The translations under genes and the position numbers were made by a program. From an uncultured bacterium (GTDB lineage Bacteria; Acidobacteriota; HRBIN11; JAKEFK01): DNA of 64,000 nucleotides. The DNA is taken from positions 256,001 to 320,000 of the forward strand of contig CAVZQN010000004.1 of NCBI GenBank assembly GCA_963777505.1, written 5' to 3'. The number at the start of each line of letters is the position of its first letter. Positions within the stretch are counted from its first letter, which is position 1. The notes beneath the pieces were generated by a model, which ran no database searches, was not told the DNA's origin, and saw only the letters and a list, made by a program, of their open reading frames with translations. Of the stretch, positions 32,034-62,577 are shown one piece after another.

Positions 32034-32036
32034 ATT

Positions 32037-33251: not shown

Positions 33252-33260
33252 CACTCGTTT

Positions 33261-33500: not shown

Positions 33501-33503
33501 GAG

Positions 33504-34247
33504 CTAGTACAGTTTTTTCAGGTAGTCTTTGGTGAAGTATTTTTCAGGCAGGTCGCGCATCAGAAAGCCGCTATATTCCAGCACCGACTTTTCACCTTTC
33601 AATGCATCTTCCATGACAAGTGTAGTCGGACGCAACGCGCCTACAACTTGTGAAAACATTTGATACCAGCAAGTTTTTAGGTGCCGTCCGGAAATTGTAT
33701 AAAACTCGGCTTTATAGGGCCGGTAATCCGTCGCATGAATCCAGTACAAGACTCGATGATAGGTAACGCCACGATCTTTTGCAGTTAGTTCCAGCACATA
33801 GTATTGGCTGTCTTCGATGTTTTCATTGCGAAGTATTTTAGGCGCATAGTCGCCGGAAAAATTACTGCGCGCAAGGTCTCCATAAGAAACCTGGCCTGTC
33901 AGGCGTTGAGAAAGTGGAAGCCGGATTGCTTGCGAAACTTTTGGCGTAAAGAACCACAAGTCTTGATCCCGCATCAAAAGAATTTGACCACGTTCTGCGG
34001 CGGGAGCAGTTGTAATCACCGTAGTCCTTTCATTGCCTTTACAAAGAATTTGATATTGCTCAACAGAAGGTTGTTTTTCGGTGGAAGAAGTTGTGATCTT
34101 CACATTCACTTGAAAAGGATCTCGCGGAAAACGGATTTCGTCAGCACGTGCCAGAATGTTTTTTGCCAAATCCTCATCTTGAGCGCCTGCTGATTGAAGG
34201 AAGATAGCGATTGAAAAGATCGCAAATACAGCGCGAAGCATGGTCAT
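33504..34247 (-). CDS. LolA-like outer-membrane lipoprotein-sorting protein
   Basis: Signal peptide, PAAERGQILLM, QRLTGQVSYGDLA, YVLELTAK, FTKDYL. Confidence 0.82.
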   Translation of the reverse strand: MTMLRAVFAIFSIAIFLQSAGAQDEDLAKNILARADEIRFPRDPFQVNVKITTSSTEKQPSVEQYQILCKGNERTTVITTAPAAERGQILLMRDQDLWFFTPKVSQAIRLPLSQRLTGQVSYGDLARSNFSGDYAPKILRNENIEDSQYYVLELTAKDRGVTYHRVLYWIHATDYRPYKAEFYTISGRHLKTCWYQMFSQVVGALRPTTLVMEDALKGEKSVLEYSGFLMRDLPEKYFTKDYLKKLY

Positions 34248-34357
34248 GATTTTCCATACTCAGTGAAATGCTGTCAAGGAGATCATTTGATATTCAACTC
34301 TAAACTTATATATTAGAGAATATTTCGTATCACGTTGCTTTTGAACGATCAAACTTT

Positions 34358-35200
34358 ATGTGGTCAAAACTCACTTCAGTATTCAGTGCTCGTCCCGTCA
34401 TTGTTGACAAGAAGGTCTTGAACCTTTCGGTCAAAATTCCGAAGACCATGCCAACAGATCAAGCAGACTACGATGATGCCTGGATATATGCATTAATGAT
34501 GCAATCGAAGGATATGTTTGATATCGGTTGTAATAATGGTTTTTTTACACTACTTGCCTGCCTGACAGACCATTCGCGAAAGGTCGTCGCAGCTGATGCC
34601 AGTCCAGAAGTTTTATCTCTTGCGGCTGAAGTTCTCTTTCTCAATGGAATTTCAGAACAAGTACATTTTGTTTTAGGCTTTATTAGCGACAAAGAGGATG
34701 AGGAACAGTTATTTTATACAACTGCATCTGGTGAGGCGGGAAGTATGTATTCCTCACACGCGAAAACTGCGGCTTCTTTAGGAAACAGAATCTCTGTGAA
34801 AACAACAACCATGGATCGAGTGATGGAAAATACAGGAATTCTTCCTGAGTTCATAAAAATGGACATTGAAGGAGCCGAAAAGTTTGCGTTAGAAGGATCA
34901 AAAAAACTTGCATCTCATCATAAATCCCGTTTTATTGTTGAAGTTCATAGCAACGCAGATCTGTCAATGAAAGAAAACGGTGAAGCAATTTTAAGTTGGT
35001 GTCAAAATGTTGGTTATAGCGCTTATTATCTGAAACACCATGCAATACTCAATTCGGTCGATGTAATTGAACATCGCGGGCGATGTCATCTGCTATTGCA
35101 ACCTGCAGACTGGATCTATCCAGAATACCTGCACGAAATTCAACAAAATGATTCTTTGGAAAAGGCTCACAGTGTTTTGAAAAAACACGGATTAGCTTAG
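34358..35200 (+). CDS. FkbM family methyltransferase
   Basis: FDIGCNNG motif I, TTTMD, IKMDIEGAE. Confidence 0.88.
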   Translation: MWSKLTSVFSARPVIVDKKVLNLSVKIPKTMPTDQADYDDAWIYALMMQSKDMFDIGCNNGFFTLLACLTDHSRKVVAADASPEVLSLAAEVLFLNGISEQVHFVLGFISDKEDEEQLFYTTASGEAGSMYSSHAKTAASLGNRISVKTTTMDRVMENTGILPEFIKMDIEGAEKFALEGSKKLASHHKSRFIVEVHSNADLSMKENGEAILSWCQNVGYSAYYLKHHAILNSVDVIEHRGRCHLLLQPADWIYPEYLHEIQQNDSLEKAHSVLKKHGLA

Positions 35201-35260
35201 GGATTTGTACGCGCTCGGCGCAATCTTGGCAGACGCGCGGTCCTTATGCAGACGGGACGT

Positions 35261-35767
35261 TCACTGCACTCTTGTAAATGTTTCCTCTTCGACCATCTTG
35301 TCTGCTCCTTTCTCGCGGAAAGTCCATTTACTTATGAAGTGATTATTGTCAATGAATCGAAATTCCGCTTTATACATATGGCCCTTTTGCAGATCAGGTA
35401 GATTCGTCGCATCAAGAAAATCAAAATTGATTTCCTTTGCATCATCGCTGATTGAAACGGCACGCATTCGTGGTTGATTCTGTGCGATGCAATAATGTGT
35501 GAGCATCAGCTGATTTCCATCCAGATGATACAAGGTGATCATCTCCATGTTGTTTTCCTTGCTCATCGTAAAAGTTTCTTGGACCGCGCTTCCTCCGGCA
35601 ACAATTTCATAAACGGCCTTCCGAGCTTCACCATCTTTTGAAGAAGACGTCCATGTTCCTTCTAAAGATTTGAACGCATCCAAAGCGGCTTTCGCCTTTG
35701 CGTCATCCGTAGCAAAAAGAAATGAATAGTTCAGCAGGATCAAAATCAAAGGAATCAAAGTTCTCAT
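35261..35767 (-). CDS. Conserved hypothetical secreted beta-barrel-like protein
   Basis: Signal peptide, LEGTW, LTHYCIAQNQPRM, GHM. Confidence 0.7.
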   Translation of the reverse strand: MRTLIPLILILLNYSFLFATDDAKAKAALDAFKSLEGTWTSSSKDGEARKAVYEIVAGGSAVQETFTMSKENNMEMITLYHLDGNQLMLTHYCIAQNQPRMRAVSISDDAKEINFDFLDATNLPDLQKGHMYKAEFRFIDNNHFISKWTFREKGADKMVEEETFTRVQ

Positions 35768-35836
35768 AGTCACCTCGCTAATGCCACTAAGACGAAGCAC
35801 ATGCCATTAAATCGACACTCCAGGTCGGTTGGGAAA

Positions 35837-38512
35837 TTATTCGTATCGCAACGCGCTGAGAGGATCGATACGAATAGCGCGACGAGCGGGGATTACACAA
35901 GCGAGGATGGCTATAGCCAGCAAAAATGCGCTAACTGCGAAATAGGTGAATGGATCTAGTGGATGTATCTCAAATAAAAGGGTCCTAAGATAGCGTGTTA
36001 AGAGAAAGGCTCCGATAACACCCAGAACGATTCCTGCGAGTGTCAGTTGTACACCGTGACCGGTAATCAACTTTAAGATATCCGCTTTCTGCGCACCGAG
36101 CGCCATGCGAATTCCTATCTCGTTTGTACGTTTCAAAGTAATGAAACTGATCAGGCCGTAGATTCCAAGTGCCGAAAGGAACACTGCAACCGCAGCGAAA
36201 ATCAAAAGTAATATCAACTGAAATCTGCGTTGAGTCAGCGAATCGCTCACAAGCTGTTCCATGGTTACGACTCTGTAAAAGGGTAAAGTGCGGTCTACAC
36301 TCCAAACTGCTGACTTCAACGCAGGGATCAATGTGTTTGCATCGGTCAATGTTCGAACCACAAAAATAGCGGCTCCGGAAGGCGATTTGCCATAAGGGAT
36401 GAAAAATTCCGGCCTTTGTTCTTGATCGAGTCCATCATGACGCAAACTACCAACGACTCCAATTACTTCAAGCGTGGCTGGTTTTTGCCTGAATTGAGTT
36501 TGAATCTTTTTCCCGATTGCATCTTCTCCAAGATTTAGCTTACGTGCCATCGCCTCGTTAATGATTATTCTGAAAGGTCCATTTTGGTGATCAGTCTGAT
36601 TGAACATGCGTCCTTGTTTCAGCGGGATCCCCAGAAGTGAAAAATATTCATCCGTTATGATTGTAAGAAACGCTGTATGCTCCTGGCCTGCAGGTAAAGG
36701 TTGACCCTCTACTGTAATCGGATAGGACGAGTCGGAACTACTTTCAAAAAAGGGAAGTGCCGTCGTTACCCCAACTGCTTTTACACCAGGTACGTTTTTC
36801 AAACGGGAGATTGCCTCACGTGTAAAATTCAAACGCGTCTCAGGCTCATCATAATGGCCATATAGAAATACTTGCATCGCTACAACGCTTTCTCTGACAA
36901 ATCCTGGATTTACATTCAGCAAATTGATCAGACTGCGGAAAAATAATCCTGCACCAATCAACAACACAATCGCAATTGCAACCTGAGAAACTACAAGCGC
37001 GTTCCGTAATTGCTGCCGGAACCGCCCTGCTGCCATGATTGTTCCTGATCCTTCTTTTAACGAATGCTGCAAATCGAAACGCGAAGCGTGGAGGGCTGGA
37101 ATCAAGCCAAATAAAATTGCGTTTATAAATGAAAGGCCTGTCGCAAATCCAAGCACAACAGGATCCAACTTCATTGTGTCCATGCGTGGGATGTTATCTG
37201 GACCAATTGCGATCATGATTCCCATCGCCCACTTTGCAACAAGTATTCCCATTGCACAGCCGAAAATCGCAAGGATCAAATTTTCAATCATCAATTGTTG
37301 AACAATATTGAACCGGCTGGCTCCCAGCGCTAAACGAACGGCAATCTCACGCTGCCGTTCAGAGCCTCGTGCAAGTTGCAGATTTGCCAGATTCGCGCAT
37401 CCAATCAAAACGACAAGTCCAACAGCTCCCAACAATACAAGTAACGCAACTCTGACATTGCTGATGAAGTGCTCACGGATCGGAACAACATTGATTTTAA
37501 TGCCCTGATTTGTTTGTGGATGCTCTTTTGCAAGCTGTGATGCAATTGTGTTCATCGCCGATTGCGCTTGCTTCAAACTCACTCCAGGTTTCAGGCGCGC
37601 AATTACTTTTAAATACGTCGCCCTGCGTTGATACTTCCAATCCTCTTCTGTTGGTTGCGGTAGAAATGCTTCTTTTTCCGGATTGTTTAAGTAAAGCCGG
37701 AACTCGGGAGGCATGACTCCGATAATTGTTATTGGTTGATCTTCCAATGTAAGAGTGCGGCCGATAACGGAACGATCGCCGCCGAATCTGCGCTGCCATA
37801 ATCCATAGCTGAGCACAACAACATTGTTACGTCCTTCTTGATATTCTTCGGGTAAAAACGTCCGTCCATACAACGGCCTTACACCAAGTATTTCAAAGAA
37901 GCCATTAGAAACGAGGGCACTTAACCAGGTTTCAGGTTCCGCCGCGCCTGTATAGTCCAGACCCTCTGGTCGAAATGATGCGATCGTTTCGAAAACGTGC
38001 TGCCGTTCTTGCCAATCCAAAAAATTCGCTGGGGAGACGTCATCGCGTTCGATTCCATCTTTGACATTGTTTTCCCAAATTGTAACGATGCCATCCGGAT
38101 TATGGAATGGCAGCGGACGGAGAAGCACGCTGTTTACGGCGCTGAAAATCGCAGTGTTGGCGCCAATTCCAATGGCAAGTGCAAGAGTTGCTGCTATAAA
38201 AAAGCCTGGCTTTTTTAGAAGAACTCGCATTCCATATTTCCCATCGTTCAAAAGTCTCGACATCCATTCCTCTGACTTGCGAGATTTTTGAACTGGAGTA
38301 ACCGGCTTTGGTTTTTGTGGAAATATCCAATGAAGAATTTGCAACCAGTACCAGGATCGCGCGCGTCTAATGCCATTATGAGAATCAGCGCGTCTTCGAA
38401 ATTCTTCTTCAAGGTCACCCAATACGAATTCACGAATGTTTTTAGGAATGAATAATTGCAAAAACCAGCGTGCCAATTTGGGTGGCGGTAAGTCGCGACG
38501 CTTATCAGTCAT
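35837..38512 (-). CDS. ADOP-type duplicated ABC permease with permease-prefix domain
   Basis: PPKLARW...GDLEEEF prefix, LAIGIGANTAIFS, duplicated MacB/FtsX modules (REIAVRLALGA, NEIGIRMALGA). Confidence 0.93.
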   Translation of the reverse strand: MTDKRRDLPPPKLARWFLQLFIPKNIREFVLGDLEEEFRRRADSHNGIRRARSWYWLQILHWIFPQKPKPVTPVQKSRKSEEWMSRLLNDGKYGMRVLLKKPGFFIAATLALAIGIGANTAIFSAVNSVLLRPLPFHNPDGIVTIWENNVKDGIERDDVSPANFLDWQERQHVFETIASFRPEGLDYTGAAEPETWLSALVSNGFFEILGVRPLYGRTFLPEEYQEGRNNVVVLSYGLWQRRFGGDRSVIGRTLTLEDQPITIIGVMPPEFRLYLNNPEKEAFLPQPTEEDWKYQRRATYLKVIARLKPGVSLKQAQSAMNTIASQLAKEHPQTNQGIKINVVPIREHFISNVRVALLVLLGAVGLVVLIGCANLANLQLARGSERQREIAVRLALGASRFNIVQQLMIENLILAIFGCAMGILVAKWAMGIMIAIGPDNIPRMDTMKLDPVVLGFATGLSFINAILFGLIPALHASRFDLQHSLKEGSGTIMAAGRFRQQLRNALVVSQVAIAIVLLIGAGLFFRSLINLLNVNPGFVRESVVAMQVFLYGHYDEPETRLNFTREAISRLKNVPGVKAVGVTTALPFFESSSDSSYPITVEGQPLPAGQEHTAFLTIITDEYFSLLGIPLKQGRMFNQTDHQNGPFRIIINEAMARKLNLGEDAIGKKIQTQFRQKPATLEVIGVVGSLRHDGLDQEQRPEFFIPYGKSPSGAAIFVVRTLTDANTLIPALKSAVWSVDRTLPFYRVVTMEQLVSDSLTQRRFQLILLLIFAAVAVFLSALGIYGLISFITLKRTNEIGIRMALGAQKADILKLITGHGVQLTLAGIVLGVIGAFLLTRYLRTLLFEIHPLDPFTYFAVSAFLLAIAILACVIPARRAIRIDPLSALRYE

Positions 38513-38835
38513 AATTTTCCTAATTGTTTTTCAAGACCCGAAATCATTCCTTTAAACGCTCTGTAGGATTCTGCCAATGCTTCCTCGCCTAATGGTTCAA
38601 GCGAAAAATATTTCTTGCGGCGTCCGCCTCGCTGCGGTGTAGGTTCTCCAACACGCGACTGAATCAGCCCTTGCTCTTCCAGTCGATCCAGAGTTGTATA
38701 CAGCGCACCAATTGAAATTTCCCGCTCTGTGCGTTTTTCAATCTCCTCACGGATTGTTGTACCGTACGCATTTTCACGCAGACGCAATAATGCAAGCAAC
38801 ACAAGCTGCTCAAATTCACCTAACTTCTTATCCAT
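38509..38835 (-). CDS. PadR family transcriptional regulator
   Basis: LGEFEQLVLLAL, GALYTTLDRLE, RGGRRKKYF; overlaps the ADOP start. Confidence 0.93.
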   Translation of the reverse strand: MDKKLGEFEQLVLLALLRLRENAYGTTIREEIEKRTEREISIGALYTTLDRLEEQGLIQSRVGEPTPQRGGRRKKYFSLEPLGEEALAESYRAFKGMISGLEKQLGKL

Positions 38836-38858
38836 ATATTCTACAATGTAGAATATAT
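38834..38858. promoter_or_regulatory. Candidate PadR operator
   Basis: Perfect 12-bp inverted repeat atatattctaca-a-tgtagaatatat overlapping the padR start codon. Confidence 0.65.
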
Positions 38859-39102
38859 CGTTTTGTGTTGTCAAGTCCGTGTGTAAGGTGTTCAGCTTTT
38901 GAACAATTAATGTCATGGACCAGCTGACAGTTTTTGTTCGATCAACACTCGTTATGATTCGATTTGGTGGCTGTACAGTTTTTATTTCCAAAACCCGTAA
39001 GTCGTTGAGTCAAAGAGTCATACGCTGAGGAGTTGTACAGTAATAAGCCGTAACACCGAGGGTTGAGATTTGATTTATTGACGAGAATCATGCGGGTATT
39101 CT

Positions 39103-39237: not shown

Positions 39238-40221
39238 ATGTCTGAGCGCCAGGCAAGTCCATTTTGGAATAAGAATTATTGGGCCCTGATCCTAGGAGGA
39301 TCGTCTGGGTTTGGTCTGGCCACTGCAAAAAAATTAGCAAGTTGTGGATTCAATATAGTGCTGGGTCACAAAGATACTCAAGGTCGCGTTGAAAGCGAAT
39401 TGAATTCGCATTTTTCGGAAATTCGAAATCATGGAGTTGAACTGCAAACGTACAATGGCAACCTGACACAGGATGAGGAACGAGGCAGTCTCTTTGCAAT
39501 CATAGAAAAATCCGTTCCGCGCGAACATCTTTATCTTTTTCTTCATTCGATTGCAGATGGATGCTGCAAGCCATTAATCGAATCTCCCGATCCGCAAACA
39601 AAAAAGCAAGCGATTTCTGAACTCACAAAAACGCTCGTTAACCGCGGAATAGAAATCTCAGAGAAAACCCTCAGCGAAGCAATCAATTATGCCTTTCATG
39701 AAAAGGGATGCGATGCATTTGCAACATTGGCTGACAGCCAGCGTCCATTTCCACAAGAAGAGTTATCAGAATCAGAATTGGCTCGCACTTTGATGATTAT
39801 GGGTTTCGATTTCGCGAATTGGGGACGCGAACTTTTACGCAATAATTTATTTTCGAAAAAGGCCCGGTTACTTGCACTTACCTCAGAAGGCAATTCAAAA
39901 GCATGGCGTGGATATGCGGCAGTCGCTGCCGCAAAAACAGCGCTCGAAGCTCTTTGTCGATCGATGGCACTTGAGTTTGCACCATACGATCTTCGTACTT
40001 GCATCGTTCAACCTGGAATAACAGATACACCAGCCGGCAATAGCATTCCTCACTTTGATTTGATGAAGGCGCAGGCTCGCCTCCGAAATCCATTTCATCG
40101 ATTAACGACTCCGGAGGATGTTGCCAATGCGATTTATGGTTTGTGTCTGCCTCTTTTTGATTGGGTAAATGGAACAGTAATTCGAGTGGATGGTGGAGAG
40201 GCAATTTCATCTTTGAGTTAG
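39238..40221 (+). CDS. FabL/FabI-like enoyl-ACP reductase (SDR) with internal insertion
   Basis: ILGGSSGFG, LHSIA, YAAVAAAK (Y-x6-K), TDTPA, NPFHRLTTPEDVA, VDGG. Confidence 0.8.
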   Translation: MSERQASPFWNKNYWALILGGSSGFGLATAKKLASCGFNIVLGHKDTQGRVESELNSHFSEIRNHGVELQTYNGNLTQDEERGSLFAIIEKSVPREHLYLFLHSIADGCCKPLIESPDPQTKKQAISELTKTLVNRGIEISEKTLSEAINYAFHEKGCDAFATLADSQRPFPQEELSESELARTLMIMGFDFANWGRELLRNNLFSKKARLLALTSEGNSKAWRGYAAVAAAKTALEALCRSMALEFAPYDLRTCIVQPGITDTPAGNSIPHFDLMKAQARLRNPFHRLTTPEDVANAIYGLCLPLFDWVNGTVIRVDGGEAISSLS

Positions 40222-40229
40222 GAAATCAT

Positions 40230-40961
40230 ATGCCGGAACAAGACGTTGCATTAATCACTGGAGCATCAGGAGGAATCGGTCAAGCGATCGCACTCATGCT
40301 TCATAAAAAAAGTAACGGACAACTTAAAATCGGTTTGCATTACAACACCAATCTTGCAGCGGTGCAAAAACTTCAGAATCAAATTCCGCATTCATTTCTT
40401 GTTCAAGCTGATCTTAGCAATAGTCAAGCTTGTGACACCGTACTGAATGAGACAAAAAAATATGGCATCCCATACATCTTGATCAACAATGCAGGCATGA
40501 GTGTTCCTCATGAACCAGCATTGGAAATTCAAAAGTCATCTTTTGAAATGATGATGAATGTTAATTTCAAAACATCGCTTTTTTTAATGCAAAATTTTGC
40601 AAAGGAAATGATCCGTGCAGGATCGGGCATCATCATCAATATCAGTTCGGTATTGGCTCGCCATGGACTTGTAGGCAGTGCAGTCTATAGAGCGACCAAG
40701 GCAGCGCTGGAAGAAACCACCAAACAGTTTGCCTATGAACTTGGAAATAGAGGCATCCGCGTGAATGCCGTCGCTCCAGGTTTTATTGAAACCGCGATGA
40801 CGGCTTCGATTCCATTTGAAAGAAGGGAGTCGATACTTGCCAAAATCAGCAGCGGAAAATTTGGAAGCCCAGAATCGGTTGCAGATGCTGTTGGTTATCT
40901 GATTGAAAATGATTACATCAATGGCGCGGTGCTGCAGGTGGACGGAGGATTGACCCTGTGA
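40230..40961 (+). CDS. fabG: 3-oxoacyl-ACP reductase
   Basis: TGASGGIG, INNAG, NISS, YRATK, VNAVAPGFIET. Confidence 0.85.
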   Translation: MPEQDVALITGASGGIGQAIALMLHKKSNGQLKIGLHYNTNLAAVQKLQNQIPHSFLVQADLSNSQACDTVLNETKKYGIPYILINNAGMSVPHEPALEIQKSSFEMMMNVNFKTSLFLMQNFAKEMIRAGSGIIINISSVLARHGLVGSAVYRATKAALEETTKQFAYELGNRGIRVNAVAPGFIETAMTASIPFERRESILAKISSGKFGSPESVADAVGYLIENDYINGAVLQVDGGLTL

Positions 40962-41431
40962 CGTTGAAGGAAAAGATTTTACAAATGATCCCGCATCAGC
41001 CTCCGATGCGATTTATTTCAGACATTTTGGAAGTCGATGATCATCATTTAATCAGCTTGTATACATGGACTGTTGGAGATTGCGCAGGACACTTTCCGGA
41101 TTTTCCGGTTGTGCCTGGAGTGAAAATTATTGAGTCTGCCGCTCAGGCTGGGTGTGTGGCATTTGGTCTTTATCATCTCTTAAAAGAAAACAACGGCTTG
41201 ATCAATCTGGGTCAAATCGGACTTTTTACTTCGATTGAGCGAGGTGTTTTTAAAGAGATCGTCAGGCCAGGAGATAAGGTTGCAATGCATGCGGAATTTG
41301 GTGAAGAAGGATATTTTCGCAATCCTAAAATTGTAGTTGAAGTGCGCGCAATTTTTCAAAATGGAAGATTAGCAGGGGAAGAAGTTTTTTATGGTCAGCT
41401 TTCTGGAGTGTGGATTCCAAAAGTTTTATAA
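40958..41431 (+). CDS. fabZ: 3-hydroxyacyl-ACP dehydratase (FabZ-like)
   Basis: IPHQPPMRF, GHFPDFPVVPGVKIIESAAQ, VRPGD. Confidence 0.88.
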   Translation: MTLKEKILQMIPHQPPMRFISDILEVDDHHLISLYTWTVGDCAGHFPDFPVVPGVKIIESAAQAGCVAFGLYHLLKENNGLINLGQIGLFTSIERGVFKEIVRPGDKVAMHAEFGEEGYFRNPKIVVEVRAIFQNGRLAGEEVFYGQLSGVWIPKVL

Positions 41432-42785
41432 TCGGAGGAAATCTAAGACTGAAATCGATCTTGAAGCGCGGGTTGTTGTGACCGGTTTGGGAGTGATTGC
41501 ATCGAACGGTATTGGTTTGCCTTCTTTCCGTGAAGCGCTTCAAGCGGGTAAATCGGGGATCCGGTGGCAAGAGTCTCACAAGCGCCACAATCTGGCGAGT
41601 CAAATTGCCGGCATTCCGGATCTAACTGAAGATGAAATTATGGAAACTTTACCCGCAAATTTTTTACACAAATTAACAGAGGCAATGGTTTATGCGGCTT
41701 TATGTGCAATCGAATGTGCTCGTCATTCCGGAGAAACGATTAATCTTTTTACAGATGATGAAACACCTGTAGATTGGAAAACAGGAGCAATTATTGGATG
41801 CGGCCTTGGGGGCGGGATGGAAATCGTGCTGGATGAGTTTGGTCCGGTATTGAAAGAAGCGGTGCACGCAGAACCGTGCCGCGGCGCTCTTCCATTAGGA
41901 AGTGATGCTGTAGCTAAAGTGATGGCAAGTGGTGTCAGCGCTATTGTTGGAAAAATTTTAGGTCTTGGCGCACAGGTAATGTCGAACAGTTCTGCCTGTA
42001 CAACGGGAACAGAAGCAATCTTTGAAGGTTACAAAAATATTCTTTTAGGTTATGCCGATTCAATGTACGTTGGTGGAACTGAAGGAACACATCTTGGAAT
42101 TTATGCAGGATTTGATGCGATGAGAGATGTGCTTTGCTCCGATTATAACGATCTTCCTGAAAAAGCTTCGCAGCCAATGGGAGCAGGTGCTTGTGGTTTT
42201 GTCCCGGCAGGCGGTTGTGGAATTTTGCGGATTGAGGCTCTTGATCATGCTTTGCAACGTCGCGCTCCGATCTTATGTGAACTGATGTCTGCATACTGTA
42301 ACTCGGGAGGTCAGAGAGATGGGGGCTCTATGACATTTCCAAATCCAGAAGGTGTTCAGCGTTGTATCCGTTTCGTTCTGGAGGATGCAGGCGTTCAGCC
42401 GGAAGAAGTTTCGTTGATCAATGGACATCTGACATCTACATCGGCTGATCCGCTCGAAGTTCACAACTGGCTCAAAGCCTTAAAATTAGATCCATCCAAT
42501 TTTCCATTGATCCAATCTACAAAATCGATGATTGGTCATGGACTGGGAAGTGCGGGAGCGATTGAATCTGTAGCGGTTGTGGATCAAATTGCACATGGTT
42601 ATGTGCATCCTTCAATCAATTGTGAAGACTTACATCCAAAAATCGAAATGATTTCTAAGAGTATTCCGCATCAATTTCAAAAACGTGAACTAGATTACGC
42701 TATCAAATCATCCTTTGGATTTGGGGATGTTAATGGTTGCCTTCTCTTTAAAAGATGGGATGGAAATGAGAACGCAATTCGGTAA
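41391..42785 (+). CDS. fabF: Beta-ketoacyl-ACP synthase (FabF/FabB-like); true start probably ~41450-41460
   Basis: RVVVTGLG, SSACTTG (Cys), INGHLTST (His), KSMIGH (His), SFGFG; GGAGGA RBS at 41434. Confidence 0.9.
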   Translation: MVSFLECGFQKFYNRRKSKTEIDLEARVVVTGLGVIASNGIGLPSFREALQAGKSGIRWQESHKRHNLASQIAGIPDLTEDEIMETLPANFLHKLTEAMVYAALCAIECARHSGETINLFTDDETPVDWKTGAIIGCGLGGGMEIVLDEFGPVLKEAVHAEPCRGALPLGSDAVAKVMASGVSAIVGKILGLGAQVMSNSSACTTGTEAIFEGYKNILLGYADSMYVGGTEGTHLGIYAGFDAMRDVLCSDYNDLPEKASQPMGAGACGFVPAGGCGILRIEALDHALQRRAPILCELMSAYCNSGGQRDGGSMTFPNPEGVQRCIRFVLEDAGVQPEEVSLINGHLTSTSADPLEVHNWLKALKLDPSNFPLIQSTKSMIGHGLGSAGAIESVAVVDQIAHGYVHPSINCEDLHPKIEMISKSIPHQFQKRELDYAIKSSFGFGDVNGCLLFKRWDGNENAIR

Positions 42786-42796
42786 AGGAGATCAAT

Positions 42797-43693
42797 ATGG
42801 GATTCGCTAGAAAAGAAGCCACGATCGAAGCAATACCTCTTGATGAATTAACGCCTTCACAGTTAGAGAAAAAAATTATCGAAGGCGTAAAAAGATATGC
42901 GACTAGAAATGAGAATTGGGCGAAGGCGACTAAAAACACTCCGTTTCTTGGCCAGATCACGGGAATGGGTATTGAATCTGCAAACTTAGTCGACATTACG
43001 ATGTCGATTGAACGGCAATTCTTAACAAGAAAAACGAAAAAAGTTCCAATCAACGCGGAAGGCACTGAATTTCGTTTAGAAGATGGCGACCTTGGTAAGC
43101 TCATGATTCTTGAAGGACAGGATACTTTTGCAGCAACTCCTGGCCTTGCAGTGAAGATGCTCATGGAGCTTGGTCACACACAAACAGATCCTTCCTATCT
43201 TGAAGACGTCATGTCTTTTGCTTATATCGTGATTGTAGGCGAAGGATATCGGCTTAATGATTCACTTCAAAAGCTTTCAATGAGAATCAACAAAGCCCCG
43301 GATGAAAATACGAAAACAGAATGGCTTCAATCTCTTTGCGAACAAATTAAGATCGCAAAAGAATACGTAAATACAATCGGCGATCCTGCGAGATTGGCTC
43401 AAACGCGGATGCGAGCCTATGAGGAAGAGCTGGATCGTTATCAGGGTCTTAATAAAGAAATTCAGGGCATCGGAGATCGAACAGTTTCCATGGATGATGC
43501 TGAACGCGAAGCATTGAAGAGCAAGCTTGCAGCATTAAAGCTTCGTTCAAATAAAAATCGGATGATTCTGAGAGTCGTGGAATCCGTTGCAAAGGATTGC
43601 GGAAAGCGTTCGCCACTTGAAGAGAATGAAGTTCAAAAAATTAAAACAAAACTTGAATCTACGTTATTGGAAATGGAAAGTTGGATGGTCTAA
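42797..43693 (+). CDS. Cryptic acyl carrier protein with insertions and ~170-aa helical C-terminal extension
   Basis: GMGIES61ANLVDITMSIERQF resembles the ACP helix-II pantetheine site; occupies the ACP slot between KS and PPTase; no other ACP in the operon. Confidence 0.65.
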   Translation: MGFARKEATIEAIPLDELTPSQLEKKIIEGVKRYATRNENWAKATKNTPFLGQITGMGIESANLVDITMSIERQFLTRKTKKVPINAEGTEFRLEDGDLGKLMILEGQDTFAATPGLAVKMLMELGHTQTDPSYLEDVMSFAYIVIVGEGYRLNDSLQKLSMRINKAPDENTKTEWLQSLCEQIKIAKEYVNTIGDPARLAQTRMRAYEEELDRYQGLNKEIQGIGDRTVSMDDAEREALKSKLAALKLRSNKNRMILRVVESVAKDCGKRSPLEENEVQKIKTKLESTLLEMESWMV

Positions 43694-43695
43694 GA

Positions 43696-44289
43696 ATGCA
43701 GGCTATTGGAAACGACATCATCGACCTTCATCATCCTTCGATCCTTGAGCATTCAAGCCAGGACGAAGTATGGATGCAGAGGCATTTGACAGGCGATGAG
43801 TGGCGATGGCTTTCGAACTTTTCCGATAGCACGCAGCGATGCTCTGAGTTTTGGCAGATCTTTGCATTGAAAGAAGCTTCATCCAAGGCAATCACTCAAT
43901 TGGGTTACACAGTGCCGTTTGGAACGTTCACGCATTTTGAAGTGGATATTGAGCGTAATACTGTTCTCCATTGTTCAGGCGAAGTTTTGGATATTCAAAG
44001 TATTCAAACAAATCCGGAATGGATACACGTAGTAGTGAGTAATGTGGTGCTGACATCTCGTCCGCAAATCTTGAGTGAAGTTCACGAACTAGGGGATAGC
44101 GAAGACGCGTCCAGTTATTTAAAGGACAAGCTCATACGCAGTCTGAAAAATAATGGTTATTCTTCCGCAACATTTGCTCAACACGATGGTATTCCTCTCA
44201 TTGTTCAGGATGGACATCCCATAGCGCCTGTTTCTTTTTCTCATTCAGGAAAATTTGCCGCATTCAGCTGGCTCGCAGGACAATCATGA
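43696..44289 (+). CDS. 4'-phosphopantetheinyl transferase
   Basis: IGNDIIDL, FALKEASSKA, terminal SFSHSG. Confidence 0.85.
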   Translation: MQAIGNDIIDLHHPSILEHSSQDEVWMQRHLTGDEWRWLSNFSDSTQRCSEFWQIFALKEASSKAITQLGYTVPFGTFTHFEVDIERNTVLHCSGEVLDIQSIQTNPEWIHVVVSNVVLTSRPQILSEVHELGDSEDASSYLKDKLIRSLKNNGYSSATFAQHDGIPLIVQDGHPIAPVSFSHSGKFAAFSWLAGQS

Positions 44290-45233
44290 AAACATATTGC
44301 CTTTTATTTTCAGGCCAGGCGGCACAGAAGCATGGAATGTGCTCCGAACTCTGGACAATGCCGTCAGCAAGAGAAGCGCTGGATACTCTGCGTCCAATTC
44401 TGGGAGATGATCTTGAGCAGATCACGACTCAGATGTCGGATGACGATTTGAAGAAAACATTCAACGCGCAGCGTGCGATTCACACTCATCATTTAGGGCA
44501 GTGGTTAGCTTTTCAACATTATCATCCTGAAATTCGAGTTGGTGCAGTCGTCGGACATTCCATGGGAGTTGTTGCTGCGCTTGTAGTATCAGGCGCGATT
44601 TCAGTAGAAGATTCTGGCCGTTTCATTTTGGAACGTTCAAAAGCTTTTTCTGAAGTTTGCGCGCAGCTGCATGATGAATATGGCTTGATGGCGGCGCAAA
44701 CAGAAGATCTGCAGGATCTAATCGATGAACTTCCCCGCATTCCAAATCTAGAACTGGCTTTGTATAACAGCCCGGGTAAAGGTGTTGTTGGAGGGAAAGT
44801 AAAAGATCTCATCGCTCTTATGGAGCTTGCAAAGAGCGAAACGTGGCCGGTGTACTTTCGCATGTTAAAAGTGGAAGGTCCATATCACACCCAGGCGCTT
44901 CAGGCATGTGAAGATAGATTAGGAAAAATGTTGCGGACAATATCTATAGAGCCTCCGAATATTCCAATCTATATGGGAACATCAGGAAAATTGGAACAGG
45001 ATCCTGAAAAAATTCGATACTTGCTTGCCAAACAGGCGACTTCAACAGAAATGCATTTTCAGGCTGTTTCTCAAGCGCTTCAATCTGGATTTCATGATTA
45101 TCTGGAAATAGCACATTATCCGCAGGCGATTCAATGGATCTCAGAAATCGCACTTGTACACGGATATACCGAAGTGACAATGACAAAAGTTCTAACTTCA
45201 GATATCCCGTTACCGCTCGAAAATATTGCATAA
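44286..45233 (+). CDS. fabD: ACP S-malonyltransferase / acyltransferase
   Basis: FSGQAAQ, AQRAI, GHSMG, LYNSP, GPYHT. Confidence 0.88.
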   Translation: MKTYCLLFSGQAAQKHGMCSELWTMPSAREALDTLRPILGDDLEQITTQMSDDDLKKTFNAQRAIHTHHLGQWLAFQHYHPEIRVGAVVGHSMGVVAALVVSGAISVEDSGRFILERSKAFSEVCAQLHDEYGLMAAQTEDLQDLIDELPRIPNLELALYNSPGKGVVGGKVKDLIALMELAKSETWPVYFRMLKVEGPYHTQALQACEDRLGKMLRTISIEPPNIPIYMGTSGKLEQDPEKIRYLLAKQATSTEMHFQAVSQALQSGFHDYLEIAHYPQAIQWISEIALVHGYTEVTMTKVLTSDIPLPLENIA

Positions 45234-45236
45234 GAT

Positions 45237-46325
45237 ATGTCACAAAAATCTGTAGTTTTGTTAACTGGATGCTCTGGTTTTGTCGGCCAATTGATGGCGT
45301 CGGTTTTACTGGCGCGTCACAACGGTCTTCAACTTGTACTGCCATACCGCAATCATCATATTGAAAAGAATTTATCGGACCGGATTTTGGAATGTGCAAA
45401 AGACCTGAATCCACGCTGTAATTTGAGCCCGGACCGGTTGATTCTAAAGCCTGTATCCAGCCTGCTGGATTTAATGTCGATGGATGACGAGTTGAGAAAA
45501 ATTGGTGTAGAGGAAATCATTCATTCGGCAGGTTCTGTTAGTTATGACGATGAAGACACTCTTCTGGCAGTCAATGTTGATCTCACAAAACATTTACTAA
45601 GCCTCGCGAAAAGAGTGAATGTGCAGCGATTCATTTATATCTCAACAGCATTTTCTTGCGGGTTCGGTCGCAAGCTTATTTATGAGGACTTGCATCCGGA
45701 ACCCGTTTTTGATCCGACTCTTTACACGAAAACCAAGCGGCAAACGGAAAATTTGATCACGCAAAGCGGAATACCTTACGTGATCATAAGACCAAGTATT
45801 GTAATCGGAGACAGCCAATCGGGTATTTATTATGGAAAACCTTATGGCATTTATCAGCTCATGCATTTTGCAAAAAAAGTTGGAAGGAGAATCGGTGAAG
45901 ACAGACTGCATGTGATTGCTCCAAGCATAAAGCTTCAGGTGATCCATCAAGATCATTTTCAAGATGCAATGGAAAAGGTGTTCTGTCATGCGGAGCCCGG
46001 AACGATTGTTCATCTGGCTTCAGAATATTCTTCGCTAATAACTTCGCGTGAACTAATTGATTACTGGATCCAGCAATATTTGAAGCCAACCGCGATCCAT
46101 TATTACGACTCACTAGCCGATTTTCCGATGGAAGATTCAACGATCGATCGCAAGCAAAAGCTTTTTGTTGAAATGACAGGCGTAAACAACGAAATCGCGG
46201 GTTACGATCTTGAATTCGATCTTACGCGGCTGAAAAAAATGTACGAATCGCCAGAGAGTTTTCCGAAAGTAACATATCAATCACTGCAAAAATGTATCGA
46301 TTGGTATATGGAAAAAATAGCATGA
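45237..46325 (+). CDS. Extended SDR of thioester-reductase / fatty acyl reductase (NAD_binding_4) type
   Basis: LTGCSGFVG, IHSAGSV, YISTAF, YTKTK, RPSIVIGDS. Confidence 0.8.
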   Translation: MSQKSVVLLTGCSGFVGQLMASVLLARHNGLQLVLPYRNHHIEKNLSDRILECAKDLNPRCNLSPDRLILKPVSSLLDLMSMDDELRKIGVEEIIHSAGSVSYDDEDTLLAVNVDLTKHLLSLAKRVNVQRFIYISTAFSCGFGRKLIYEDLHPEPVFDPTLYTKTKRQTENLITQSGIPYVIIRPSIVIGDSQSGIYYGKPYGIYQLMHFAKKVGRRIGEDRLHVIAPSIKLQVIHQDHFQDAMEKVFCHAEPGTIVHLASEYSSLITSRELIDYWIQQYLKPTAIHYYDSLADFPMEDSTIDRKQKLFVEMTGVNNEIAGYDLEFDLTRLKKMYESPESFPKVTYQSLQKCIDWYMEKIA

Positions 46326-46342
46326 AGCTATAGGAGGCAACC

Positions 46343-47065
46343 ATGCAGACAATGAGGACTTTGCCAGTTGATGAAGCCATGTCCCAGCTTATGGGGTTGG
46401 CAATTTTTGGTGAGAAAGTCGCTGCTCGAACTTACACGCTAATGGCTAAGATCAAACCTGAATTCGATCAGCTTCTTCGCAAATTCTCACATATGGAAGG
46501 TCAGCATGGCACCTGGTTTATGGATGGAAGCCGAAGCAACAAGATCGAACCTGATAAAGCCTTTGCAGACCGTGAGCTTGGATACTTGATCGATCAAGTT
46601 GATGAATATTACAAGCAGCAGGATTTTAATGCGCTGGCAATTTTGCAGGGTTTTATTGTGGAAAGTCTCGCGATTTCTACATATGAACCATTTTTGGAAG
46701 TTGCACACAAATATCCTGGATCTGAAAAAGCATTCAGACAGGCCCTCGCTGATGAGCGGTATCATGTAGATTGGATCACGCGATATTTAAGGCTCGAGTT
46801 TTTTGAAAGCGAAAACAATTTCCTTCAATTGACGGAGCGTGTGAATGCTCAGGGAGTGGATTGTATCGGCGGAAGCATGATGAACATTGTCGATTGTCTG
46901 AACAGTGTTGGACTCTCAGGCGCCGATTGTTCGGGGACGATGGTCGCCGAATACACAGGATTATTGGAAAGCGTCGGAATCGACAGTGAATCCGCTACAA
47001 AAAATGTGATGGGCATCTTCATGCCCCTGATTCGTAAATACAAAGCCGGCGAAAGGACTAAATAG
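46343..47065 (+). CDS. Aldehyde-deformylating oxygenase-like ferritin-fold diiron protein
   Basis: E24, E52xxH55, E107, E138xxH141; segments GEKVAARTY, MEGQH, IEPDKAFA, LQGFIVESLAISTY, DERYH parallel cyanobacterial ADO. Confidence 0.8.
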   Translation: MQTMRTLPVDEAMSQLMGLAIFGEKVAARTYTLMAKIKPEFDQLLRKFSHMEGQHGTWFMDGSRSNKIEPDKAFADRELGYLIDQVDEYYKQQDFNALAILQGFIVESLAISTYEPFLEVAHKYPGSEKAFRQALADERYHVDWITRYLRLEFFESENNFLQLTERVNAQGVDCIGGSMMNIVDCLNSVGLSGADCSGTMVAEYTGLLESVGIDSESATKNVMGIFMPLIRKYKAGERTK

Positions 47066-47089
47066 AATCTCTAAGTCTTTGCGGTAAGA

Positions 47090-47701
47090 ATGGAACCAAT
47101 AGAACAAACTTTTTGGTCTGTGATGAAACAGCTCGAAGTTCTGGCTGTTTCTCAGTACAAAAAATTCATCCCTGAATTAAGCGCAACGAGAAAAGAAATT
47201 TTTTTGCAGAATGTACCTTCGCAAAAAAGTTCCGCAGACGATCAGCTATCGAGTGCGGTTGAAAGGTTAGTGGAAGTTGCCACAAAAAACTCCCGGCTTG
47301 ATACGCTGCTTTTACAAGGCTTCACGCTTGAACTGATGGGACAAGCAATTTACAGGGCGATTCAAAATGTTTCGTCTGTTAACGAAAATTCTCACCTGCT
47401 TGCAGAACAAGCGTACACAGCATCGCAAGATGTACTCCAGCAAGTTCTTTCTATTCTTAGAAAAGAAAATCTTGTTGGCGATTCAGGCTTTAAGGCTTTT
47501 GTTTCAGCAACGCAAGATGTCTTCGGCGCTTTAGATTCAATGGGAACGTTGATTGACGAAACTTTCGCAGGCCAGAGCCAGTTTCGATTTGATGATATTT
47601 TAGCTGACGCTGTCGCTGAACTTCTAAAGTACGGCGCCGATCTAGGAATGGACCGCAAAAAACTTCTTCGCCAGTTGACCAGCTCCCTAATGACCGGCTG
47701 A
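47090..47701 (+). CDS. Degenerate ADO-like paralog lacking in-register ExxH ligands
   Basis: LEVLAVSQY and LLQGFTLELMGQAIY align with helices 1 and 3 of the upstream protein; LGMDRKKL tail. Confidence 0.6.
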   Translation: MEPIEQTFWSVMKQLEVLAVSQYKKFIPELSATRKEIFLQNVPSQKSSADDQLSSAVERLVEVATKNSRLDTLLLQGFTLELMGQAIYRAIQNVSSVNENSHLLAEQAYTASQDVLQQVLSILRKENLVGDSGFKAFVSATQDVFGALDSMGTLIDETFAGQSQFRFDDILADAVAELLKYGADLGMDRKKLLRQLTSSLMTG

Positions 47702-50805: not shown

Positions 50806-50872
50806 CCGGAAAAAGGCGAGCCTATGCAGCTCGCCTTCCCGAATTTCAGTTAATACGAAGATAGCCAACGGT
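50806..50872. repeat. 67-bp direct repeat, copy 2 (native 3' end and terminator of the 854-aa gene)
   Basis: Identical to 47711-47777; hairpin 50813-50837 with T-tract on the minus strand. Confidence 0.9.
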
Positions 50873-53410
50873 CACGGTTGTGGCTTTTGCTTGAAATGCA
50901 GCAGTTCCGAATGGTGTTGCTCCCGCCGGCATCGTAATTGCTAGAACATCATCCACAAATACTTCGAAGTTCGTTCCGTTAAAACTAACCTTCACTTTGT
51001 AAACCGTATTGGGGTTGATGATCCTTGTAGCCTTCTTGGTTGCAACAACATTGCCGTTCGAATACTGCTTCAGCGTCCACTTGTCATTGCCAGGATTCAA
51101 GTTGAGCTCTACAAAATTTTTCGAATCGTTGTACCAACCGCGAAGCCATACTTTTCCGCCTGCTGTTTTCATCGTAGTTTCAATTGTGCAATTTGTGCAG
51201 CCACTGAAAGCAGGCGAAAAGATAACCAACGCTTTTCCTGATGCACTTCCACTGAGTGAGCCGCCTGTCTCATTCCAATTTCCTTTTTGATAAGTGATGT
51301 CGGTGCGTAGAACATTGTCATCAAATTCATCGCTAAATTGGGATCCGGATCCAGCGTTAATTGTGATGTTGTAGGGTTGATCCGCAAAACATCCATTTGC
51401 ATCGCTGATTCGAATCGTAAACGGATATGATCCTCCAGCCGTAGGAGTGCCTGTAATCTTGCGTGTTAAGTTGTCCAGAAACAATCCCGGAGGCAACGTT
51501 CCAGAAAAAACTGTGGCTGTATAAGGCGCAGTACCGCCTGTTGCTGAGATTGTTCTGTTGTACGCAACCCCAACATTTCCTGCTGGCAATGTTGAAGGTG
51601 AAACTTGAATATTCGCTGTGCAGGTAAAAATGTCCATGGTGTAATATCGGGCGCCTGTGCATCCGTATCGATCCATGACTGAAACGAAGAAATCAAACGT
51701 TCCAGCTTGAGATGGAAATCCTGTTAGCCAGCCTCCACCATACAATACGAGTCCGGGTGGCAGGTTTCCAAAAAAGATACTGTACTCATAGGGTGCGGTT
51801 CCGTTATTCGTTGTTATGTCCTGGCTTACATATGCACCCACATTTGCATTTGTTTGTGGTAGTGGATCCAGATTTAGCGTGTTCCAGCATTGCAATGTAT
51901 GTGCTTGTATTGTGTAGTTGATTGTTCCTGCTGCGGCATTATTAACTCCAATCCACCATCGACCAACTTCGGTTCCGGTATCAATACATCTTTCTTCAGT
52001 TGTTCCAGTTCTTATAGATTTGCAATCATAATCGGTTGCTGTTGGCTTACGATTGAAAGCAATATAAAGATCAGCGTCCTTATTGAGATTAGTAAGTTCG
52101 ACAGAGAGTGATTGAAAAACATCTCTATCGATAAAGAAATAATCCCAAGTTGAATAGGGTGTAGGGGAGGAAATAGAATCATTAACAGGAACGCCATTTA
52201 CTAGCCGCGTTTCAATTAATGCTCCCCACCCAATTTGTAACGGTGTATCTTCACACAGAGCAGGATCCGTGTGTTTCATAATACAAGGACCAGTTTGCAG
52301 ACTGCATGATTCACAATTTCTATTTTGAACGGTAGGCCTTGGAGAAAAAGGTGTGCAGGGACCACAGGAACTACACTGACTGGCATATTCATCACATGCC
52401 CAGAAGATGTGTCCCGTTTCATGCGAAAAAATCCAGCCACCGTATCCCATACTTGTGTAAAGAAGCTGAGTGTAAGGGCCTCCAAAATACGCATATGCCG
52501 ACACTCCATTTGTGAAAGTCCCGGGAGAAGGTGCGTTGTAAGCAATAAACGCAGAATAAGCCCAGTCTGCGCCGGTATTCGCTCGAAGCGCCGTGTTGAA
52601 ATTAACTATGTTTGAATGACCAAGGTTAGCGGTGATGGCGCCGATCCAAAGATGATCGTCAACACTTGAATGCAGAATTGGTTCATAGGGCTGTTGACAG
52701 ATTGGACTCGTGGAGCTGTTAAATAAAACTGTAAAGCTAACACTGCTGCTATAAGAAGGAGCCTGTGCAGTCCACCATGCAAGGCCGCTTAATGCTGCGT
52801 TCTTTGTTTCTGTTTCGTGAGCTTGAGTCCATGTATATGTATTTGGATCAATTGCGCCATTGCTTTCTACAAAGAAAATTGCAACGGCAACTCTTCCGGT
52901 CATGCTATCGGAATTTCCAGAAACAGCATTGATCGCTGATGTGGAGATATCGTAGTCCTTCCATACAAGAGCATCATTTGTTAAAGGTTCCCGCTCGGTC
53001 GTTTCCTCTTTCATCTTGTCTTTTTCCATTGAACCGGAAACGACATAGTTAAAGAATCGAAGCCCGGAAAGGGTATTCTCATCTTCTGATACGAAAGAGT
53101 TGACGTCCACTTCTTTATCTGTAACAAATGAAATTCCGCGTTGGCCCTGTAATGTATTTTTTAAAGTCGGTGGTAACCAACCAAGCATGACCTGTGGAGG
53201 AATTACGATTGAAATTTTTCCACCAAGACTTTCAACATAATCTTGTGCTGCGATCGTGGAGGCAACGTCATTGCTTCCGAGTAACATCAAGGTATAACCT
53301 TTTGCCCATGAATCTTTTTGTATCGACAAACTGTGATCCTCATGAGCGAAAAGAATGTGTGAAAATCCAAACAGTGTCAGGAACAGTAGGTTCAAAAATT
53401 TCAGTTTCAT
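50846..53410 (-). CDS. Secreted zinc metalloprotease with PPC, two putative Ig (He_PIG-like) and C-terminal beta-sandwich domains
   Basis: Signal peptide, HETGHIFWACDEY, CIM Met-turn-like motif, DADLY (PPC), GTAPY...LPPGL repeats. Confidence 0.82.
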   Translation of the reverse strand: MKLKFLNLLFLTLFGFSHILFAHEDHSLSIQKDSWAKGYTLMLLGSNDVASTIAAQDYVESLGGKISIVIPPQVMLGWLPPTLKNTLQGQRGISFVTDKEVDVNSFVSEDENTLSGLRFFNYVVSGSMEKDKMKEETTEREPLTNDALVWKDYDISTSAINAVSGNSDSMTGRVAVAIFFVESNGAIDPNTYTWTQAHETETKNAALSGLAWWTAQAPSYSSSVSFTVLFNSSTSPICQQPYEPILHSSVDDHLWIGAITANLGHSNIVNFNTALRANTGADWAYSAFIAYNAPSPGTFTNGVSAYAYFGGPYTQLLYTSMGYGGWIFSHETGHIFWACDEYASQCSSCGPCTPFSPRPTVQNRNCESCSLQTGPCIMKHTDPALCEDTPLQIGWGALIETRLVNGVPVNDSISSPTPYSTWDYFFIDRDVFQSLSVELTNLNKDADLYIAFNRKPTATDYDCKSIRTGTTEERCIDTGTEVGRWWIGVNNAAAGTINYTIQAHTLQCWNTLNLDPLPQTNANVGAYVSQDITTNNGTAPYEYSIFFGNLPPGLVLYGGGWLTGFPSQAGTFDFFVSVMDRYGCTGARYYTMDIFTCTANIQVSPSTLPAGNVGVAYNRTISATGGTAPYTATVFSGTLPPGLFLDNLTRKITGTPTAGGSYPFTIRISDANGCFADQPYNITINAGSGSQFSDEFDDNVLRTDITYQKGNWNETGGSLSGSASGKALVIFSPAFSGCTNCTIETTMKTAGGKVWLRGWYNDSKNFVELNLNPGNDKWTLKQYSNGNVVATKKATRIINPNTVYKVKVSFNGTNFEVFVDDVLAITMPAGATPFGTAAFQAKATTVTVGYLRIN

Positions 53411-62492: not shown

Positions 62493-62503
62493 CAATATAG
62501 AAA

Positions 62504-62577
<74 letters not shown>

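Follow-up and report, generated by a model that had tools for sequence, protein, structure and literature searches.

A ten-gene bacterial operon joining a fatty acid synthase-like gene set to a conserved ADO-like diiron module: a putative route to hydrocarbons

In the cyanobacterial system of acyl-ACP reductase (AAR; ACP, acyl carrier protein) and aldehyde-deformylating oxygenase (ADO), a reductase gene lies beside a gene for a diiron protein of the ADO fold, and the pair is supplied with housekeeping acyl-ACP. To our knowledge, all characterised ADO enzymes are cyanobacterial. An operon of ten genes with a comparable arrangement was analysed at positions 39238-47701 (+) of a 64,000 nt stretch of DNA from an uncultured soil bacterium (contig CAVZQN010000004.1, positions 256,001 to 320,000), the whole of which is referred to as the window. 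Here too a reductase gene lies beside a gene for an ADO-fold diiron protein, designated ADOl, which has the fold, the length and the six iron ligands of ADO. Unlike in the AAR-ADO system, ADOl shares only 20-28% identity with ADO-type proteins, the reductase belongs to the NAD_binding_4 family, a second and presumably metal-free subunit is encoded, the hosts are not cyanobacteria and, in this genus, an apparently private fatty acid synthase (FAS) with its own carrier replaces housekeeping acyl-ACP. The reductase shares its fold family and catalytic residues with the terminal thioester reductase (TR) domains of nonribosomal peptide and polyketide synthases, with carboxylic acid reductases of A-T-R architecture and with MxaA (PDB 4u7w); unlike these it is a stand-alone protein of 362 aa, scoring 66.6 bits against TIGR01746, under the cut-off of 213. 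The reading preferred here is a putative conversion of an acyl chain on a carrier, by way of an aldehyde, to a Cn-1 hydrocarbon, with a probability of about 0.5.

The ten open reading frames (ORFs) run head to tail on the plus strand, their junctions being gaps of 2-24 nt or overlaps of 4-41 nt. A preliminary description of the window had reported ten co-oriented, tightly packed or overlapping genes at this place, and every one of these ORFs was recovered. Two units make up the operon. Unit 1 (39238-45233) encodes a FAS-like set comprising an enoyl reductase (ER), a ketoreductase (KR), a dehydratase (DH), a ketosynthase (KS) and an acyltransferase (AT), together with a 298-aa protein taken as the carrier and a 4'-phosphopantetheinyl transferase (PPTase); unit 2 (45237-47701) encodes the reductase TR, ADOl and a 203-aa protein, the partner. 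Eight of the ten genes passed the Pfam model's own cut-off, the exceptions being the 298-aa and 203-aa proteins, for which neither Pfam nor NCBIfam contained a family. A second, sister species of the genus (locus L001) has all ten genes in unchanged order. Protein identities between the two species ranged from 56 to 95%, ADOl being the most conserved (95% versus 56-85% for the others) and the PPTase the least (56%).

ADOl (46343-47065, +, 240 aa), presumed to be the catalytic subunit, matched the ADO model PF11266 with 66 bits against a cut-off of 28, over profile positions 9-209 of 218, and TR (45237-46325, +) matched NAD_binding_4 (PF07993) with 80.2 bits against 20.1, so that both family assignments made in the preliminary description agreed with Pfam. 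ADOl aligned end to end with cyanobacterial ADOs, the only indels being of 2 and 4 residues. The iron ligands of SeADO are given as Glu32, Glu60, His63, Glu115, Glu144 and His147 in the part of PMC4286721 available to us. Residues E24, E52, H55, E107, E138 and H141 of ADOl, arranged in two E...ExxH motifs, align with the ligands of that list and were invariant in 27 of 27 members of the clade.

No family other than ADO was approached in sequence. Searching the PDB with ADOl returned 24 sequences at E values up to 1, of which the 20 below 0.1 were all ADOs (best 1e-12) and the remaining four were flagellins and a glucanase (E at least 0.26). When 1.84 billion representative proteins were searched exhaustively with HMMER, only 39 matches resulted, consisting of the 50% cluster of the ADOl clade and its fragments, one relative of 42% identity, two relatives that have lost ligands, and ADO-type proteins scoring 199-389 bits against TIGR04059. 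The representative of the ADOl clade (P0081) scored 66.8 bits against this model and the ADO-type representative (P0293) 389 bits. Membership of the AurF, CylC, MiaE or desaturase families was considered for ADOl and rejected, none of these being returned by the Pfam, NCBIfam, PDB sequence or exhaustive HMMER searches. The proposed grouping of the diiron gene with ADO was thus upheld, only ADOs appearing in the PDB below an E value of 0.1 and ADO-type proteins being the other full-length relatives. A word-indexed search found 322 ADOl relatives; among the 120 listed, all but one were 59-66% identical, and those with names were called rubrerythrin, fatty aldehyde decarbonylase or hypothetical protein, with labels that include Polyangiaceae and Kofleriaceae. 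A search of plasmids with ADOl gave no match. In a maximum-likelihood tree, a single long branch (100/99) split 77 ADOl rows from three ADO rows, and the sequences from the window, the sister species and one metagenome contig formed a clade (99/90) nested within the other ADOl rows. Two full-length relatives of 25-30% identity, P0271 and P0275, have several iron ligands replaced and represent further degenerate ADO-fold lineages, distinct from the family of the 203-aa partner.

The partner (47090-47701, +) is a degenerate ADO-fold protein. Its AlphaFold2 (AF2) model had a pLDDT of 91.9, and the top Foldseek matches were ADO crystal structures with TM scores of 0.74-0.77; AurF, CmlI and R2lox appeared only as weak fold matches ranked below ADO. 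In an alignment of 34 relatives from the fetched loci, a QG(F/L)xLE motif mirrors the QGFIVE helix of ADOl, and hhalign placed the partner on the ADOl profile colinearly over 156 columns (probability 64%, E 6.7e-5). In this comparison the residues of the second ExxH of ADOl (E138 and H141) stand opposite Ser112 and Val115 of the partner, and an invariant Lys35 lies in the region opposite the first ExxH. The preliminary description had counted two ferritin-like genes; the second has an ADO fold but lacks both ExxH motifs and is not a second oxygenase. The partner is presumed to be a structural, non-catalytic subunit lacking a metal site.

On the evidence of structure prediction, the partner probably forms a heterodimer with ADOl. 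The predicted complex scored 0.74, against 0.07 for the best of three controls. In the calibration of the predictor, 58 solved complexes out of 80 and 2 mismatched pairs out of 110 attained such a score; because the alignments used here were our own, these counts apply approximately, and the score may owe something to resemblance to ferritin-like dimers of known structure. Separate runs agreed in at least 95% of contacts, with a pLDDT of at least 84 for the partner, and placed the interface at the C-terminal helices of both chains.

TR is an extended short-chain dehydrogenase/reductase (SDR) of the NAD_binding_4 family, in agreement with the earlier proposal of a reductase other than AAR. The AAR models matched none of the ten cluster proteins, the rest of the genome not having been searched for AAR. 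The glycine motif G11xxG14xxG17, S136/T137 and Y163xxxK167 were kept in at least 95% of 41 family members, and the closest match in the PDB was the MxaA reductase 4u7w (E 5e-7).

ADOl was used to scan genomes and metagenomes, once each, which provided 84 loci. The partner gene lay directly 3' of the ADOl gene in 59 of the 60 loci having at least 750 nt downstream, the exception being L026. A homologue of TR (33-46% identity) adjoined in 37 of the 39 loci with room for it, downstream in 32 and upstream in five, the exceptions being L026 and L073; the usual gene order was ADOl, partner, TR. When 523 roughly called ORFs from these loci were clustered, no other neighbour was common to more than six of the 84. 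Around copies of the module standing alone, the neighbouring genes were unrelated and included those for an RNA methyltransferase, an HtrA-like protease, an ABC transporter, a Mo-hydroxylase, an M48 peptidase, SecA and an aminotransferase, among others. ADOl, partner and TR are thus a conserved and widely distributed three-gene module.

The distribution of this module is sparse and patchy. ADOl was present in 2 of 61 relatives, both in the window's own genus. Among 201 genomes from the phylum to which a Binatia holder belongs, that holder alone had it, and among 121 genomes from the class of a further holder it was present in 4, of which two were already known. Named holders comprise Binatia, a metagenome-assembled genome (MAG) labelled Limnocylindria, Polyangiaceae and Kofleriaceae. 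The class sample drawn for the Limnocylindria-labelled MAG (G062) contained a Binatia-labelled MAG (G063), so that label and classification disagree for at least one of the two. The FAS set was present in only 1 of 11 loci having at least 7.2 kb upstream, that of the sister species (L001). Wide conservation was found for the three-gene core, which the preliminary description had not recognised, and the full ten genes occurred within one genus only.

All five cycle enzymes of unit 1 (AT, KS, KR, DH and ER) passed their Pfam cut-offs, and every FAS-type gene fell far under the cut-off of the equivalog models of NCBIfam. ER (39238-40221, +, 327 aa) is an enoyl-ACP reductase-like SDR (adh_short_C2, 110 bits) in which about 100 aa are inserted behind the start of the Rossmann fold; it is 84% identical to the L001 protein, and its best NCBIfam model was FabL, at 108.4 bits against a cut-off of 328. 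KR (40230-40961, +), a FabG-like 3-oxoacyl-ACP reductase, scored 162.8 bits with adh_short_C2 and 187.4 with TIGR01830 (cut-off 297.75). DH (40958-41431, +, 157 aa), a FabZ-like 3-hydroxyacyl-ACP dehydratase overlapping KR by 4 nt, scored 30.9 bits with Pfam FabA and 67.9 with the FabZ model NF000582 (cut-off 113). KS (41391-42785, +, 464 aa), a FabF-like elongating ketosynthase with both the N and C ketoacyl-synt domains, scored 247 bits with TIGR03150 (cut-off 493.75), and the FabD-like AT (44286-45233, +, 315 aa) scored 81.9 bits with Acyl_transf_1 and 117.7 with TIGR00128 (cut-off 260.9). The PPTase (43696-44289, +) matched Pfam ACPS with 36.6 bits. The ORFs of KR and PPTase open at TTG codons (40161 and 43681); since the L001 copies align only from later residues, from residue 24 in the case of KR, the true starts are probably ATG 40230 and ATG 43696. 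Inspection of the translations by eye found the catalytic motifs of each enzyme: Cys/His/His in KS, GHSxG in AT, S-YxxxK in KR, His/Glu in DH and Yx6K in ER. The definitions of these motifs, including those for ER and KS, are the ones we take to be standard.

A canonical plsX-fabD-fabG-acpP-fabF locus lies elsewhere in the genome, with every member above its NCBIfam cut-off (353.6 bits for FabD). As this locus passes the cut-offs that the cluster genes miss, the identity of the cluster as the housekeeping FAS was rejected. Between KS and the housekeeping FabF the identity is 35%, and KR is only 29-32% identical to its best SDR matches elsewhere in the genome. Compared in this way, the cluster reads as a second, divergent, private FAS set, as the preliminary description had held. 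It resembles the housekeeping type II FAS of the same genome in its enzyme families and in having a full reducing cycle; unlike the latter, it has a two-domain carrier of 298 aa in place of the 76-aa AcpP, a PPTase of its own and no FabH.

The 298-aa protein (42797-43693, +) is taken as the carrier of the pathway because the PPTase gene lies directly downstream of its gene and there is no room for another ORF. At least 252 relatives of it were found. Those with labels are mostly from Elusimicrobia MAGs, with some from Thermoanaerobaculia (44-60% identity); closer relatives are 75-87% identical, one of them, at 82%, being labelled Acidobacteriota. Among 301 genomes of the window's phylum the protein was found in two, and no match was obtained among plasmids or in viral contigs. 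In 42 sequences of the family G56, G58, E60 and S61 were invariant, and residues 1-150 were highly conserved. The AF2 model (pLDDT 86.7) comprises an ACP-like N-terminal domain (approximately residues 15-130), in which S61 stands just before a helix at 63-74 and a beta hairpin is inserted at 75-101, and a long C-terminal bundle, residues 139-298 of which matched generic three-helix bundles with VIA-align. An hhalign comparison of the family with the AcpP of the genome was weak (probability 3%, E 0.014) and placed S61 on the AcpP serine. A Foldseek search of the PDB with the model returned nothing, and in the ESM Atlas all scores were below 0.9. If the protein is the carrier, it represents a new carrier-protein architecture, in a family of more than 250 relatives without a Pfam model.

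Other loci join the module to different genes. On a 270-kb seawater contig (L066:6713-12480), genes for TR, an AMP-binding and PP-binding didomain, ADOl, the partner and a membrane fatty acid desaturase (PF00487) are tightly packed, the didomain with its separate TR amounting to a split A-T-R. A second marine locus (L073:9-3880) carries a didomain and a desaturase 66% and 59% identical to those of L066, and its ADOl was sister to that of L066 in the tree (100/99). In L070 (4316-11332), and also in L069, genes for a DUF1302 protein and an MMPL-family (lipid) transporter lie directly upstream of TR, ADOl and partner. In the sister species the cluster is preceded, in the same orientation, by genes for an AMP-binding enzyme and an S-adenosylmethionine (SAM) methyltransferase, beyond which lie genes for a LolA_like protein, two FtsX permeases, a protein of unknown family and a DUF1302 protein. 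Across these loci and the window there are three independent architectures in which an acyl chain would be presented to the module on a carrier. Genes of lipid-export type (MMPL, DUF1302, LolA_like and FtsX) recur near it.

Under the preferred reading, the PPTase would arm Ser61 of the carrier, on which the FAS set would build a saturated acyl chain. TR would use NAD(P)H for a two-electron reduction that releases the chain as a fatty aldehyde, from which the ADOl/partner heterodimer, supplied with O2 and external electrons, would cleave C1 to give a Cn-1 hydrocarbon and formate. The nearby LolA-like/FtsX system may handle the product. The named holders of the module are presumably aerobes for the most part, which would fit an O2-dependent step.

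A number of observations weigh against this pathway. Against the ADO equivalog model TIGR04059, ADOl scored 64.4 bits, far under the cut-off of 222.65; because of this score, and of the low identity to ADO-type proteins given above, ADOl is best regarded as a sister subfamily of ADO whose reaction may differ. According to the available part of PMC4286721, a Tyr21-Tyr125 pair seals the channel of SeADO; these positions are occupied by Met13 and Phe117 in ADOl in our own reading of the alignment. The preliminary description had called the 298-aa protein ACP-like, and its match to the ACP fold is moderate. VIA-align, which is independent of Foldseek, matched residues 15-130 to ACPs and a peptidyl carrier protein (PCP) with Z scores of 8.4-9.6, values that are common by chance for helical models; they included the complex I ACPs 6zk9_j (Z 9.6, root mean square deviation 2.3, 82 of 82 aa), 8iuf_EC (Z 9.0) and 7tgh_AC (Z 8.5), the Lsd14 ACP 7s6b_E and the McyG PCP 4r0m_A (Z 8.5 each). 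The PP-binding model PF00550 matched 0 of 42 members of the family, even at E values up to 5. The operon contains no ferredoxin or reductase gene for electron supply, and only one genus has all ten genes (2 of 61 relatives and 2 of 301 genomes of the phylum). A search of sequencing runs listed one run of soil DNA, in which 0.06 of the words occurred, and none of RNA. Finally, MxaA, the nearest solved relative of TR, is one that we take to reduce its substrate through to the alcohol, and an alcohol is for that reason a possible end product of TR.

The alternative that best survives these points is that the ADOl/partner pair hydroxylates, desaturates or epoxidises an acyl thioester or aldehyde, in the manner of PaaA/PaaC or of an acyl-ACP desaturase, TR then releasing an oxidised lipid (a hydroxy-aldehyde, diol, alkenal or alcohol) and no hydrocarbon being formed. 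PaaA/PaaC likewise combine a subunit with complete ligands and a paralogue that has lost them, the arrangement predicted here as a heterodimer, and they oxidise a CoA thioester rather than an aldehyde. PaaC was among the fold matches of the partner, at a TM score of about 0.53, but that match is much weaker than those to ADO, which also ranked above R2lox, AurF and CmlI. Neither ADOl nor the partner belonged by sequence to a Paa family in Pfam or NCBIfam. The locus further differs from the Paa system in having no equivalents of PaaB, PaaD or PaaE nearby, in the predicted interface through C-terminal helices and in a substrate that is presumably aliphatic. The distance of ADOl from ADO, in equivalog score, branch length and gate residues, is in keeping with a different oxidation, as are the desaturase genes beside the module in L066 and L073 and the usual order of ADOl, partner and TR, which is compatible with an oxygenase acting first. 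On the other hand, ADO is the only family near ADOl in sequence, and the module mostly stands alone, accompanied by neither a carrier nor a CoA-ligase gene, so that a free aldehyde is the simpler substrate. An oxidised lipid is regarded as the unlikelier product, though a substantial competitor to the hydrocarbon.

It is a good deal less probable that the product of TR is itself final, as a fatty aldehyde or alcohol that goes into wax esters or ether lipids or acts as a signal, the ADO-like pair being off the pathway with a role in protection, regulation or iron handling. Some NAD_binding_4 enzymes are alcohol-forming reductases, the solved structure nearest to TR is that of MxaA, and some copies of the module have MMPL, DUF1302, LolA_like or FtsX genes close by. 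Against this stand the joint travel of ADOl, partner and TR (59 of 60 and 37 of 39 loci), the invariance of the six iron ligands and the position of ADOl as the most conserved protein between species, a pattern that fits a catalyst and not a bystander. That unit 1 is a second housekeeping FAS lying by chance beside unrelated genes is highly improbable: its FAS-type genes do carry ordinary Pfam domains, but they lie far under equivalog cut-offs that the canonical set passes, they are accompanied by their own PPTase and an atypical carrier, and their order is kept in the sister species within a set found in just 2 of the 301 phylum genomes sampled.

In the open full-text literature no description of the module or of characterised non-cyanobacterial ADO homologues was found, subscription journals being outside the scope of the search and an earlier description there being possible. 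The available part of PMC10176705 mentions a 'fatty aldehyde decarbonylase' on a Flavobacteriaceae contig, as an annotation only. What is new at this locus is that the logic of AAR-ADO is followed with another type of reductase and an extra structural subunit, joined in this genus by an apparently private FAS whose carrier has a new architecture. A broader interpretation is offered tentatively: the module may be a self-contained, horizontally spreading device for alkane or alkene synthesis, with an obligately heterodimeric ADO, in non-photosynthetic soil and marine bacteria (Acidobacteriota, Binatia, MAGs labelled Myxococcota and others). In the present genus it would have captured a private FAS and two-domain carrier, and the cell would make a dedicated hydrocarbon whose chain length is defined, perhaps exporting it to the envelope. 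Were this true, alkane synthesis would extend to heterotrophic soil and marine bacteria, with a bearing on the 'cryptic hydrocarbon cycle' that PMC10176705, in the part available, discusses for waters. Enzymology and biofuel engineering would also gain a second version of a notoriously slow enzyme, this one heterodimeric, in an operon that unites acyl supply, carrier, PPTase, reductase and oxygenase in a single cassette. Should the chemistry differ, the module would still be a conserved diiron system worth assigning.

The G+C content of the cluster (0.43-0.44) matches that of the rest of the window and no tRNA gene lies near it; a compositional sign of recent transfer was thereby ruled out. 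A scan of the operon for promoters and terminators was uninformative, yielding fewer promoter-like matches than shuffled sequences. Upstream, on the opposite strand, the cluster is flanked by genes for a PadR regulator and an ADOP-family permease (TIGR03434, 949 bits), and downstream by a homoserine dehydrogenase gene. A tblastn search with the ADOP permease (35837-38512) gave 32 matches at E < 1e-8 across the genome, three of them in tandem on contig C3 (187-195 kb). The earlier guess that the organism is an Acidobacterium is plausible in view of these matches and of the 82% identical carrier relative labelled Acidobacteriota.

Further upstream, two FtsX/MacB-type permeases (30816-32033 and 32037-33251, both +) and a LolA_like protein (33504-34247, -) were identified with Pfam. 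All three are shared with the sister species near the cluster, at 85, 77 and 81% identity, and a LolA_like gene also precedes ADOl in L004. The view that the genes at 30816-34247 are accessory export genes of the cluster is suggestive only. The interval between the LolA_like gene and the cluster differs between the species (33504-38991 in the window, L096:1293-4619 in the sister): it is filled in the window by genes for an FkbM methyltransferase, a 179-aa protein of unknown family, the ADOP permease and PadR, and in the sister by those for the AMP-binding enzyme and SAM methyltransferase. The sister cluster does not lie at a wholly different genomic site, since the FtsX, FtsX and LolA_like genes upstream are shared; the differences are in the 4-5 kb of filler and on the downstream side. 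The DUF1302 gene upstream of the sister cluster is located at L096:8384-9925. One kilobase downstream of that cluster, at L001:12390-13382 (-), lies a phage-tail-sheath-like gene (Phage_sheath_1 with a C-terminal domain), for which tblastn at E values up to 1e-10 gave no match in the genome of the window.

The Limnocylindria-labelled MAG encodes, at L004:5797-8805 (-), a protein of 1002 aa with three stretches matching Pfam Disintegrin (257 bits), which is unusual for a bacterium. In the window, an 854-aa protein with He_PIG Ig-like repeats is encoded at 50846-53410 (-), and a tRNA-Asp/tRNA-Val pair at 62503-62741 represents its only two tRNA genes.

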